From positions 1-10,314 of the forward strand of contig CAYGVN010000023.1 of the NCBI GenBank assembly GCA_964353445.1: a DNA stretch of 10,314 nt, written 5' to 3'. Position numbers and translations under genes: made by a program. The DNA comes from Candidatus Woesearchaeota archaeon. GTDB taxonomy: Archaea > Nanobdellota > Nanobdellia > UBA10117 > CAYGVN01. Under the pieces are notes generated by a model, which made no database searches, was not told where the DNA came from, and was given only the letters and a program-made list of their open reading frames with translations. Each line of letters begins with the position of its first letter. Within the stretch, counting starts at the first letter, position 1. Below are positions 73 through 4,168 of the stretch, piece by piece.

Positions 73-246
73 GCCGAGGTAGTTCAGTGGTAGAACACCA
101 GTCTCATACGGCAGCCTTTCTTTTTTGCGAAAGAAAGTCTCCCGGGCATCCAAAGAAAACGCTAGTGTATCGCTAACGCGATACACAAAGGATGCTCGCA
201 GAACTGAGTAAGCTGGATGTCGTGAGTTCGACTCTCACCCTCGGCA
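73..246 (+). tRNA. tRNA with CAU anticodon (elongator Met, or Ile2 if C34 is modified), interrupted by a 102-nt intron at 37/38
   Basis: Acceptor gccgagg (73-79) pairs fully with cctcggc (239-245). D arm gttc-agtggta-gaac (82-96). Anticodon stem ccagt (98-102) / gctgg (212-216), CAT at 105-107. Variable atgtc (217-221). T arm gtgag-ttcgact-ctcac (222-238). Discriminator A246. G1:C72 and the absence of a GGG/CCC anticodon stem argue against an initiator. Mature length is 72 nt after removing 109-210. Confidence 0.85.
109..210 (+). other. BHB intron of tRNA-CAU, 102 nt, internally structured
   Basis: 3-4-3 bulge-helix-bulge. The outer helix is the anticodon stem. 3' bulge taa (209-211), central helix ctca (103-106) / tgag (205-208), 5' bulge tac (107-109). 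Cutting after the second bulge nucleotide on each side gives 108|109 and 210|211. Internal helices: 116-123/130-137, 143-151/190-198, 165-173/178-186. Confidence 0.8.
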
Positions 247-252
247 TTAATC

Positions 253-1476
253 ATGGAACCCAAGACAGACATGGAGAAAACAAAGGAAAGGTGGGATATT
301 ACCAAGAAGTATCTCAAAAAAGCAGCAAAATTTACTAGGGACAAACTGATTCTTATCCGTCCCCTGAGCAAAAGGGAGGAATTTCAGCTTAGCAAAGTAA
401 ATCCTTACCTGTCTCCTAAAGAGCTTAAGCTATTGGTCAGTTTTATTAAACAGAAAAAGGCGAGCATAAACCTCAATAGGCTTGGCTGGTCTTTTCTTAT
501 AAGCGGAAAGGACTTGCTGCCTGAATTAATTTCAGATGCAAAAGAAATTCAGGAATTGAATGAGAAAATACAAAAAATATTTTACAAGGAAAGATTTGAG
601 GAATTTTCAGAGCGTGCTTTTGGAATCCTTCCTCAGCTTATTGCTCCTAATTTGGTTGGTTTATTGCATGCCAAGCAGGCTGCTGCTCTCCAGCTCTTTT
701 CTACAGAGCCGATTCACATTTTGCTCTTGGGAGACCCAGGAACAGGCAAGACAGAAATAATCCGCTCTGCAGCTGAACTTGCGCCGATTTCATCTTTCGG
801 GCTGGGAAGCGGAACATCTGGAGCAGGATTGTCAGCTACAGTTGAAGGAAAGAAGATTCTTCCAGGCCTTCTGCCTATGGCGCACAATGGAATCTGCTGC
901 ATTGACGAGCTTAACCTGATGAAAAAAGAAGACAGAGCTTCGCTGTACAATGCAATGGAAAAGGGCTTTGTTTCATACGATAAAGGCGGCAAGCACTATA
1001 AGTTTGATGCTAAGATTAAATTATTATCCACAGCAAATCCAGAAGGAGACAAATTTAAATCTTATAAACTTGAGGCAATTAAAGAACAGCTTCCTTTTGA
1101 TTCTGCTCTTCTCTCAAGATTTCATCTTATTTTGTTTATTAAAAAAGTAAGCCTGGAGAAATTTGCAGACATTGCTGAAAAGCTTATACTCAACGATAAA
1201 TCTCTGATAAATAAAGCAGATATTTCCTTTATTAAGAAATACATAGCATATGCAAGTAATTTGGACGCAAAGCTTCCTCATCACCTCAGCTCCAAAGTCA
1301 AAGAATTTGTAATGGAGTTAAAGAAAAATGAAGACAATCTGCCTTTTGAAATAACGCCGAGAACAATTCATGGAGTGCTTCGGCTTGCAAAAGCATCTGC
1401 GCTGATGGAACTGCGGGAAGAAATTGAGCCTAAGGATTTAGACAGAGTATTTAATATTTTTAACAAACAGCTTTAA
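253..1476 (+). CDS. MCM-family AAA+ ATPase, truncated form (AAA+ core only; no N-terminal OB/zinc domain, no C-terminal winged helix)
   Basis: 407-aa ORF. MCM-type motifs occur in canonical order: IAPNLVG..AKQAAALQLF, Walker A GDPGTGKT (aa 160-167, nt 730-753), SGAGLSA, Walker B CCIDELNLM with following DRASLYNAMEKG (aa 215 onward), sensor-1 STANP, arginine finger LLSRFHLI (aa 286-293), FIKKYIAYA, sensor-2 region ITPRTIHGVLRLAKA. Only about 125 aa precede the core and they contain no cysteine. An alternative start Met lies at nt 271. Confidence 0.8.
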   Translation: MEPKTDMEKTKERWDITKKYLKKAAKFTRDKLILIRPLSKREEFQLSKVNPYLSPKELKLLVSFIKQKKASINLNRLGWSFLISGKDLLPELISDAKEIQELNEKIQKIFYKERFEEFSERAFGILPQLIAPNLVGLLHAKQAAALQLFSTEPIHILLLGDPGTGKTEIIRSAAELAPISSFGLGSGTSGAGLSATVEGKKILPGLLPMAHNGICCIDELNLMKKEDRASLYNAMEKGFVSYDKGGKHYKFDAKIKLLSTANPEGDKFKSYKLEAIKEQLPFDSALLSRFHLILFIKKVSLEKFADIAEKLILNDKSLINKADISFIKKYIAYASNLDAKLPHHLSSKVKEFVMELKKNEDNLPFEITPRTIHGVLRLAKASALMELREEIEPKDLDRVFNIFNKQL

Positions 1477-2344: not shown

Positions 2345-2519
2345 GCCTCGGTGGCTCAGACGGTAGAGCGTTGCCTTGGTAACAGCAGCTTCTTTCTTTC
2401 GCGAAAGAAAGACGCTCCTGGGAATCTAGAAAGAAAGGCGTGCGACTTTTAGTCGCACAATACTGGGTTTCCACGGTCCAGAAAGGCAAAGGTCGCGAGT
2501 TCGATTCTCGCCCGGGGCT
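2345..2519 (+). tRNA. tRNA-Thr (anticodon GGU) interrupted by a 102-nt intron at 37/38
   Basis: Acceptor gcctcgg (2345-2351) / ccggggc (2512-2518) with one U-G pair. D arm gctc-agacggta-gagc (2354-2369). Anticodon stem ttgcc (2371-2375) / ggcaa (2485-2489), GGT at 2378-2380. Variable aggtc (2490-2494). T arm gcgag-ttcgatt-ctcgc (2495-2511). Discriminator U2519. Mature length 73 nt. Confidence 0.85.
2382..2483 (+). other. BHB intron of tRNA-Thr, 102 nt, related to the intron at 109-210
   Basis: The outer helix is the anticodon stem. 3' bulge aaa (2482-2484), central helix ttgg (2376-2379) / ccag (2478-2481) including one U-G pair, 5' bulge taa (2380-2382). Splice sites are 2381|2382 and 2483|2484; a one-nt shift gives the same product because of flanking A residues. 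Internal helices: 2391-2399/2404-2412, 2417-2427/2465-2476, 2440-2447/2451-2458. Confidence 0.8.
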
Positions 2520-4063: not shown

Positions 4064-4168
4064 GGGCCTGTGGTCTAGTGGTTATGACGTCGCCCTATAA
4101 AGTAAGCAAATTGTTTGCTTTAGGCGAGTACAAGGCGGAGGTCGCCAGTTCAAATCTGGCCAGGCCCA
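4064..4168 (+). tRNA. tRNA-Val (anticodon UAC) with a 32-nt non-canonical intron between positions 33 and 34
   Basis: Acceptor gggcctg (4064-4070) pairs fully with caggccc (4161-4167). D arm gtct-agtggtta-tgac. Anticodon stem tcgcc (4090-4094) / ggcgg (4134-4138). T arm gccag-ttcaaat-ctggc (4144-4160). Discriminator A4168. Removing 4097-4128 gives the loop CU-UAC-AA and a 73-nt mature tRNA. The exon sequence CCCUUACAAGGCGGAGGUC resembles archaeal tRNA-Val sequences as I remember them; I could not check this against a database. Confidence 0.75.
4097..4128 (+). other. Non-canonical BHB intron of tRNA-Val (32 nt)
   Basis: Inner helix taaag (4098-4102) / cttta (4118-4122). 5' bulge cta (4095-4097). 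Central 4-bp helix cgcc (4091-4094) / ggcg (4123-4126). 3' bulge agt (4127-4129). Outer helix is only 2 bp (4089-4090 / 4130-4131). Cuts after the second bulge nucleotide fall at 4096|4097 and 4128|4129. Confidence 0.7.

Follow-up and report, generated by a model that had tools for sequence, protein, structure and literature searches.

We examined a 10,314-bp stretch of DNA from a Candidatus Woesearchaeota archaeon (the whole of contig CAYGVN010000023.1; hereafter the window), in which the genes for tRNA-Thr(GGU) and tRNA-Met(CAU) are each interrupted by a predicted intron at position 37/38. We consider it probable, at about three chances in four, that both introns belong to a proliferating family of structured introns of about 85-105 nt in DPANN archaea, whose members combine a conserved core with a host-specific tail and are spliced at a motif of the bulge-helix-bulge (BHB) type. 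A covariance model of the core (model R1), built from 17 copies aligned with MAFFT, matched 65 times at E<1e-5 in 40 loci of Woesearchaeota/Nanoarchaeota-type DPANN archaea, and 64 of these matches are distinct; within the window it matched just the two introns (2383-2474 and 109-199). An earlier note on this DNA had offered a choice between a spreading intron and a selected functional RNA housed in two tRNA genes. Both halves of that proposal hold: the element has spread (64 copies), it appears to have been gained (orthologous genes lack it), and its structure is kept by compensatory changes. The earlier note had cited intron gain as proposed for Thermoproteales; this family sits in DPANN archaea and not in Thermoproteales. 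The features on which the argument rests are the following.

2345-2519 (+): tRNA-Thr(GGU) gene, interrupted; Rfam RF00005, 50.5 bits, model positions 1-71 at full length, with a 104-nt insertion in the anticodon loop
2345-2381 and 2484-2519 (+): exon 1 and exon 2 of tRNA-Thr(GGU)
2382-2483 (+): BHB-type intron in tRNA-Thr, position 37/38, 102 nt; unique strict BHB solution
2383-2474 (+): conserved family core of the Thr copy; match to model R1 at 90.7 bits, E ~7e-16
2383-2420 (+): P1ext hairpin, CAGCAGC-UUCUUUCUUUC / GAAAGAAAGA-CGCUCCUG; family pair counts and RNAalifold
2421-2427 (+): 5' strand of P2, GGAAUCU, partner 2465-2471; minimum free energy (MFE) fold and family pair counts
2428-2438 (+): purine strand R2, AGAAAGAAAGG, parallel complement of the P1 5' strand 2391-2400
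2440-2458 (+): P3 hairpin, GUGCGACU-UUU-AGUCGCAC; MFE fold
2465-2471 (+): 3' strand of P2, GGGUUUC; MFE fold and family pair counts
2472-2483 (+): host-specific 3' tail, in which CCAG 2478-2481 pairs with exon bases UUGG 2376-2379
73-246 (+): tRNA-Met(CAU) gene, host of the other window copy; Rfam RF00005, 55.3 bits, with an insertion of about 104 nt in the anticodon loop
109-210 (+): tRNA-Met intron, position 37/38, 102 nt; strict BHB solution and MFE fold
109-199 (+): core of the Met intron; model R1, 70.4 bits
109-144, 145-151/190-196, 152-159, 165-186 and 197-210 (+): P1ext, P2, R2, P3 and tail of the Met intron

Aligned pairwise, the window introns are identical at 61 of 105 columns, mostly within the first 45 nt. 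The earlier note had called for such a formal alignment, and the model E-values (~1e-16 for Thr, ~1e-11 for Met) place the resemblance beyond chance. A pattern drawn from the core and scanned across one genome per GTDB species matched 18 times, with 11 matches in DPANN archaea (several per genome) and about 7 in bacteria, against a chance expectation that we estimate by hand at about 6. A second pattern recovered 36 stretches from JGI/ENA metagenomes of groundwater and sediment, and pattern scans of IMG/VR viral contigs gave no match. Two non-repetitive blocks, CRGCAGC and GGCUCCYGGGNAUC, are conserved across the family. Rfam (15) reported tRNA and no other family for either intron, both at the gathering thresholds and at E<=5, and an Rfam search for hosts of the copies with no obvious tRNA found no rRNA, signal recognition particle RNA or RNase P RNA. 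Searches of the accessible literature for a conserved tRNA-intron family in DPANN archaea or Woesearchaeota found nothing specific; with no Rfam match either, the family appears to be previously undescribed.

The two window copies are only 64% identical to each other, ranking 52nd of 63 by similarity, while over the 56-nt core the Met intron shares 95% identity with a tRNA-Lys(UUU) intron from another genome, and the Thr intron shares 95% with introns of tRNA-Gly(GCC) (at 37/38) and of a tRNA-Met D-loop in other genomes. Because each copy is so much closer to copies elsewhere than to its neighbour, the two are members of two old subfamilies; they do not stem from a local duplication, nor is either a recent copy of the other. 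Across copies, the subtypes of the 5' module and the types of P3 are shuffled, a GUGCGAU...AUCGCAC P3 occurring with four P1 subtypes, which suggests recombination among copies. Columns 6 and 106 of alignment A4 are also linked: where core position 6 is U or C in place of G (CAUCC/CACCC), P2 reads GGCACC nearly always and not GGCAUC, which may reflect a tertiary contact or mere linkage within a subfamily. Three copies (L046:1341-1490, L043:367-518 and L058:10158-10297) carry a two-hairpin expansion of 54-64 nt in the apical loop of P1, closed by CCAGAG/CUCUGG, and model R1 mis-starts on three further P1-expanded copies (L036:7333, L029:258 and L047:5006).

Conserved fold of the intron core

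Over the 64 copies, 92.0% of the cells at modelled pairs are paired, as against 40-55% when the partners are slid. Compensatory double changes occur at 22 of 30 pairs, and none of 500 shuffles matched the observed values. RNAalifold yielded the same helices from the seed alignment made with MAFFT alone, and the MFE folds of the two window introns have z-scores of -4.1 and -4.8, being 4-5 standard deviations (SD) stabler than shuffled sequences. The helices that the earlier note had read in the Thr intron (P1 at 2391-2399/2404-2412, P2 at 2417-2427/2465-2476 with C2474 bulged, and P3 at 2440-2447/2451-2458) are all in the MFE fold. Its P1 was drawn too short, since it is only the middle section of a helix, here called P1ext, that runs from the first conserved base of the intron to the G after CUCCY.

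P1ext, a hairpin of 16-17 bp across the family, has 16 modelled pairs, with 95% of cells paired and compensatory changes at 11 of the pairs. At its base the first conserved C-R-G pairs with the C-Y-G of CUCC[Y]G; the second of these pairs (2-100) is A-U in 33 copies, G-C in 26, U-A in 3 and G-U in 2, with no unpaired case among the 64, and divergent members replace the basal triplets by GUA/UAC, UGG/CCA or AAG/CUU. A C.C mismatch at column pair 4-98 is kept in 62 of 64 copies (C2386.C2417 in the Thr intron). The distal half of P1 is a homopyrimidine/homopurine helix, 8 bp or more in length and represented in the window by UCUUUCUUU/AAAGAAAGA, that is conserved through U-A to C-G double changes. 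P2 follows P1ext with 0 nt between them and encloses R2 and the variable P3. Its consensus is GGNAUC(C) with GAUN'YY on the 3' side, and N-N' co-varies (C-G 33, A-U 16, G-U 5), so that the double change from C147-G194 to A2423-U2469 pointed out earlier is both present and family-wide. A second double change, from C143-G198 to U2419-A2473, is likewise present in the two introns, but the pair it concerns, between the Y of CUCCY and the base after P2, forms in 41 of 64 copies and competes with pair 2-100 (intron nt 2 with the same Y), which forms in all 64. C2472 and A2473 of the Thr intron are able to lengthen P2 in that way, and the pairing of Y with the base after P2 may represent a second conformer, in which the bases at the start of the intron are left free for the 5' bulge. 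In P3, all 7 modelled pairs show compensatory changes. G-U pairs are frequent in P1 and P2, and therefore selection acts on the sense RNA strand.

Beyond P2 lies a 3' tail of 8-15 nt that is host-specific and complements four exon bases upstream of the insertion site. These exon bases lie 2-3 nt upstream of the insertion point, giving a 4-bp central helix flanked by two 3-nt bulges. In many copies at the D-loop and at 37/38 the tail closes with GCAG(A/G)A, whose GCAG directly repeats that of the conserved 5' CRGCAGC; T-loop tails carry the complement of intron nt 1-4 in place of that ending.

Insertion sites, predicted splicing and probable gain

Both host genes cover the Rfam tRNA model (positions 1-71) end to end once the insert is skipped, with anticodons read from the sequence as GGU (2378-2380) in tRNA-Thr and CAU (105-107) in tRNA-Met. 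A strict BHB search, in which the exon and the intron tail had to form a 4-bp central helix and an exon-side helix was also obligatory, returned a single solution of 102 nt for each window intron. For Thr, the central helix is UUGG2376-2379/CCAG2478-2481, the bulges are UA|A (2380-2382) and AA|A (2482-2484), and the outer helix is the 5-bp anticodon stem 2371-2375/2485-2489; runs of A leave the boundary at 2382 ambiguous by 1-2 nt, which affects neither the spliced product nor the intron length. For Met (109-210), CUCA103-106 of the exon pairs with UGAG205-208 of the tail, the bulges are UA|C and UA|A, and the 5-bp anticodon stem is again the outer helix. These unique solutions, together with the covariance-model scores, bear out the earlier reading of an intron at 37/38 of tRNA-Thr(GGU) with a homologue in tRNA-Met. 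The equal length of the two introns, on which that reading had remarked, is real but coincidental, because the 13 copies at 37/38 that obey the strict rule, both window introns included, range over 97-106 nt, with one of 139 nt. Most D-loop and T-loop copies depart from the strict rule. In T-loop copies, intron nt 1-4 additionally pair with the tail in a 4-bp helix (CAGC/GCUG, GUAC/GUAC, AGGC/GCCU). Calling boundaries by brute force, splicing and then running ARAGORN, was too noisy, as many hosts carry two or three introns.

The range of hosts is broad. By inspection of the flanks, the 64 distinct copies occupy at least 15 tRNA isoacceptors and three sites, namely 37/38, the D-loop and the T-loop, so that the similarity resides in the intron and not in the exons, as the earlier note had held. 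Hosts at 37/38 include tRNAs for Thr (in four lineages), Met, Gly, Lys, Arg, Ser, Pro, Ala, Asn, Asp, Ile, Val, His and Leu, and at least 10 copies lie in T-loops. L018, L028 and L050 contain tRNA genes that carry two copies. In L055, a tRNA-His(GUG) gene (299-633, - strand) has family introns of three different subtypes in its D-loop, at 37/38 and in its T-loop, or about 335 nt of intron within a tRNA of about 73 nt.

Comparison of orthologous genes in relatives, which had also been suggested, points to gain. The MCM-like protein encoded at 253-1476 in the window has its best matches, at 57-64% identity, in metagenome-assembled genomes of Nanoarchaeia, Woesearchaeota and other DPANN archaea. 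In loci syntenic with the window, a tRNA-Ala and a tRNA-Met are followed by the MCM-like gene and the GT2 gene, and in L001, L004 and L005 by tRNA-Thr after that; these loci come from relatives with 61-64% protein identity. L003 duplicates the L004 locus, and the tRNA scan took in L001, L002, L004 and L005. In all four, the tRNA-Met lying upstream of the MCM-like gene is intronless. The tRNA-Thr after the GT2 gene has an insert of only 12 or 42 nt (L004/L005 and L001), and in L002 no tRNA-Thr was found after the GT2 gene. Model R1 matched nowhere in L001-L005, the 12- and 42-nt inserts included. In other orthologues of tRNA-Met there is an intron of the family that belongs to another subtype; it lies at 37/38 in one (L018:925) and in the D-loop in another (L019:3082). 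Such presence and absence at orthologous tRNA genes is the pattern expected from repeated gain.

Two further observations concern these loci. The tRNA-Thr(GGU) gene at L001:6427-6541 shares the sequence of its exon 1 with L053, and its 42-nt intron has a P1-like Py/Pu hairpin, CCUUUUGC-UAGC-GCAAAAG, but lacks P2 and P3; the intron may have arisen by deletion from the family intron found in L053, although model R1 gives no match to it. In addition, an open reading frame with a weak LAGLIDADG_3 match lies directly 3' of tRNA-Thr in L003/L004 (12094-12738) and L005 (2317-2961), and another (L002:8153-8839) overlaps an interrupted tRNA on the opposite strand; the window has no such reading frame.

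We propose that the family spread by transposition between tRNA genes and is removed by an archaeal splicing endonuclease, a broad-specificity EndA, which would cut in both bulges before a ligase joins the exons. The self-folding core begins at the 5' bulge and would thus supply an intron-side helix wherever the element lands, so only the tail would have to match the host. This would account for the presence of a single element in anticodon loops, D-loops and T-loops. As a self-contained cassette, the core may also keep the intron from disturbing the folding of the tRNA.

Two copies, L040:93-195 (-) and L045:2931-3009 (+), sit outside tRNAs. A TATA-like box (TTTATAAA / CATAAAAAA) precedes each of them by about 30 nt, and each has an extended P2 followed immediately by GGGTTTTTT, a T6 run, with a hairpin that also ends a convergent tRNA gene; they may be stand-alone genes for the RNA. 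The L040 copy is part of an insert of about 135 bp between 18-nt direct repeats of a tRNA 3' end (ATCCCTCCGCGCCCGCCA), an arrangement that looks like a DNA-level insertion or an att duplication.

The purine strand and a candidate triple helix

The segment between P2 and P3, which the earlier note had called the linker, is no passive linker, as it co-varies with P1. This purine strand, R2, tracks the 5' strand of P1: copies with U4-C-U3 in P1 have A4-G-A3 in R2, U5-C-U3 goes with A5-G-A3, U3-C-U4 with A3-G-A4, and U4-C-UU-C-U-C with A4-G-AA-G-A-G. In the Met intron, R2 (AAAGAAAA) reads as the parallel complement of UUUCUUUU at 117-124. R2 is thus the parallel complement of the P1 pyrimidine strand, or the mirror (not the repeat) of the P1 purine strand. 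Among 49 distinct (P1, R2) classes, parallel complementarity averaged 0.938, compared with 0.839 +/- 0.010 when R2 was permuted among classes (0 of 2000 permutations), and antiparallel complementarity was 0.846 vs. 0.851 permuted, giving no signal. The parallel register was superior in 32 of the 49 classes, tied in 17 and lost in none; mismatches numbered 13 in 455 positions in that register and 62 in 459 in the antiparallel one. The lengths of the first runs in P1 and R2 agreed as 3-3 (29 classes), 4-4 (8) and 5-5 (5), and were never swapped. A Watson-Crick switch between R2 and the P1 5' strand was excluded, as the antiparallel register shows no co-variation.

As a rule, the third strand of a purine-motif triplex is antiparallel to the duplex's purine strand, with A placed over A-U and G over G-C (PMC7583470). 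The mirror relation fits a triple helix of this kind because its polarity and its A/A-U and G/G-C correspondence are identical to that rule, whereas a mirror would be meaningless to a sequence-reading protein. The three-way co-variation supports a purine third strand antiparallel to the duplex purine strand, this being the sole polarity with a signal. The core triples 9-23-12 and 46-22-13 of tRNA obey the same A.A-U / G.G-C rule. We tentatively suggest, at clearly less than even odds, that the core holds a natural intramolecular purine-motif RNA triplex with an A/G strand of 8-12 nt, marked by three-way covariation and carried in a mobile tRNA intron and perhaps in a stand-alone gene as well. 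R2 would dock on P1 as the third strand, running opposite to the P1 purine strand and placing A on A-U and G on G-C. To do so, P2 (7-8 bp) would fold back beside the 8-bp G+C-rich base of P1ext; R2 would then begin level with the Py/Pu tract and run toward the P1 loop, which is the observed polarity. Docking may compact or stabilise the intron, sparing it misfolding with the tRNA exons and rapid degradation.

Known natural RNA triple helices are almost all of the pyrimidine motif (U.A-U and C+.G-C, parallel). The candidate would resemble the triplexes of ENE/MALAT1, telomerase and riboswitch pseudoknots, and the triples of the tRNA core, in that a single strand reads a Watson-Crick helix with three-way covariation. 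Unlike the known RNA triplexes, its third strand would be purine-rich and antiparallel over 8-12 consecutive positions, a proposal drawn here from co-variation; a contiguous all-RNA purine motif is not established (PMC7583470). If the R2-P1 triplex is real, it would be the first natural long purine-motif RNA triplex.

Alternatives, known systems and neighbouring genes

Several points weigh against the reading of a BHB-spliced, spreading intron whose core may hold a triplex. The splice sites of both window introns are predicted, and the intron-side helix contiguous with the central helix is 0-1 bp, short of the canonical hBHBh' motif. The splice motif is best described as a relaxed BHB, of the bulge-helix-loop (BHL) type, or as a three-way junction where P1ext and P2 meet the central helix. 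Its cleavage would rely on a broad-specificity endonuclease; no EndA gene lies in the 10.3-kb window. The alignment derived from the covariance model is biased toward the model structure, and the copies are phylogenetically non-independent, so that the shuffle statistics overstate significance. The geometry of the third strand is demanding, with 0 nt at the P1ext-P2 joint and only 3-5 nt for the return from P3 to P2, and whether purine-motif triplexes made wholly of RNA form in vitro is disputed (PMC7583470). In some copies (CAAAG/CUUUG), the bases at the start of R2 can lengthen P2 instead, and the copy L029:2649 violates the mirror rule. Finally, the two or three copies that look like stand-alone genes, L040 and L045 among them, fit a functional RNA better than a purely selfish element.

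The last point leads to the strongest alternative, namely that the core is a trans-acting small RNA, freed by tRNA splicing (probably as a circle) or transcribed from its own gene, with the introns merely its vehicle. Conservation extends beyond structure to sequence, the GGCUCC block, the C.C mismatch (62/64) and the purine strand being nearly invariant among genomes whose proteins are only about 60% identical, and archaeal tRNA introns are known to circularise (PMC3326292). Against this, we found no complementarity to a target, no known protein-binding motif, no C/D boxes and no Rfam match at E<=5, and the promoter and terminator signals assigned to the stand-alone copies come from reading by eye alone. 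A housekeeping RNA would not need dozens of copies per clade or as many as three in a single tRNA gene, numbers that are typical of a selfish element, and the syntenic 21-kb loci of relatives lack the element altogether. As the whole account we consider it rather unlikely, yet a trans-acting function is a live rival that is compatible with spread between tRNA genes.

It is improbable, though less easily set aside than the explanations that follow, that the mirror symmetry works in DNA, as H-DNA that stimulates recombination or insertion, and not as an RNA contact. The P1 purine strand and R2 form a one-strand homopurine mirror repeat 13-16 nt apart, which has the sequence that H-DNA requires; H-DNA is described as recombinogenic (PMC11667243), the element clearly moves at some level, and the L040 copy, antisense between its 18-nt direct repeats, suggests a DNA-level event. 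The spacer is long for H-DNA, however, and the third partner (the pyrimidine strand Y1), together with helices tolerant of G-U, points to a structure selected in the sense RNA. In one lineage the parallel match even reaches the apical region of P1 (UUC with AAG), as would fit one RNA strand with three tracts. In short, the family resembles H-DNA mirror repeats in its A/G-tract mirror repeat and differs from them in the 13-16-nt spacer, in the complementary pyrimidine tract on the same strand and in selection at the RNA level (G-U pairs).

A very small probability falls to the view that these are ancient, vertically inherited introns, alike only through low-complexity tracts and generic hairpins, with neither family nor mobility. 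The P1 and R2 tracts are indeed of low complexity, and tRNA-Thr(GGU) has a 37/38 intron in every examined relative with the gene, so that this position may be old. Such a view is at odds with covariance-model E-values of 1e-11 to 1e-16, with the non-repetitive blocks CRGCAGC and GGCUCCYGGGNAUC, with the perfect co-variation of pair 2-100 (64/64), with the same core in D-loops, T-loops and 37/38 sites of unrelated tRNAs, with orthologous tRNA-Met genes free of the intron, and with a split of pattern matches of 11:7 between DPANN archaea and others over a hand-estimated chance background of about 6. A resemblance confined to low-complexity sequence is refuted by the pattern scan, the model scores, the pair counts and the host range.

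The intron of pre-tRNA-Trp is similar in length (about 100 nt), and a CUGA at 204-207 lies near the 3' end of the tRNA-Met intron, but a box C/D guide for 2'-O-methylation of the host tRNA, as in Haloferax and other euryarchaeal pre-tRNA-Trp, is ruled out for practical purposes by the absence of RUGAUGA from both window introns, by the position of that CUGA within the host-specific tail, which is not family-conserved, by the lack of any snoRNA or sRNA match in Rfam at E<=5, and by a conserved fold incompatible with k-turn architecture.

A spreading family of structured introns has its closest parallel in Thermoproteales, where the gain of tRNA introns by transposition has been implied, with the BHB as the sole junction requirement, in the account of Fujishima et al. 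(2010) given in PMC4090602. As there, highly similar introns occur in tRNAs of different identity and at different positions, and the DPANN family shows presence and absence at orthologous tRNA genes. The Thermoproteales introns are reportedly mostly short, and we know of no conserved tertiary-structure signal reported for them. The family described here lies outside that crenarchaeal order, in a DPANN/Woesearchaeota-type lineage, and its members measure 85-105 nt, have a three-helix core of about 90 nt with a separable host tail, and reach up to three copies in one tRNA gene. With canonical EndA-cleaved BHB introns the family shares position 37/38, the 4-bp central helix, the two 3-nt bulges and the anticodon stem as outer helix, and a circular intron would be expected; unlike in those introns, the intron ends form no outer helix, and P1ext, starting from nt 1, makes a three-way junction with P2. 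Like the euryarchaeal tRNA-Trp C/D intron and the tRNA intronic circular RNAs (tricRNAs) of metazoans, it is a tRNA intron of about 100 nt, predicted to be released by splicing, in which a structured RNA is itself conserved. It differs from both in having neither C/D boxes nor guide complementarity, and in occupying many tRNAs and positions in place of one orthologous intron.

For the origin of archaeal tRNA introns, transposition has so far been inferred solely from sequence clusters in Thermoproteales, and the present family gives a richer handle: core and tail are separable, many insertions at three types of loop look recent, and syntenic loci are polymorphic. Genes with three copies and possible stand-alone copies add to this, so that how targets are chosen and what the core does can both be tested directly. 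DPANN lineages are reported to have EndA variants of the alpha4 type with an L3 loop and broad specificity, which have been linked to heavy disruption of tRNA genes, and their predicted tRNA sets are incomplete (PMC5829648). Since introns of this kind interrupt the genes, the element would explain why tRNA finders miss DPANN tRNAs; ARAGORN detected none of the four tRNA genes in the window, and tRNA genes hidden by several interruptions could be found with a covariance model of the core.

Those four genes, by the Rfam tRNA model, lie at 1-58, 73-246, 2345-2519 and 4064-4168, and the two that have not yet been described are as follows.

1-58: 5'-truncated tRNA gene; Rfam tRNA model
4064-4168 (+): third interrupted tRNA gene, with an intron of about 32 nt; Rfam, 55.5 bits, missed by ARAGORN

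Model R1 does not match the intron at 4064-4168, which thus falls outside the family. A mature anticodon loop of CU|UACAA, read by eye, suggests that this gene is a tRNA-Val(UAC) with its intron at a non-canonical position near 33/34. The MCM-like gene at 253-1476 (+) encodes an MCM-family AAA+ protein of 407 aa with P-loop and lid domains only (Pfam), and in related DPANN genomes this short gene is kept beside the tRNA-Ala/tRNA-Met pair and the GT2 glycosyltransferase.

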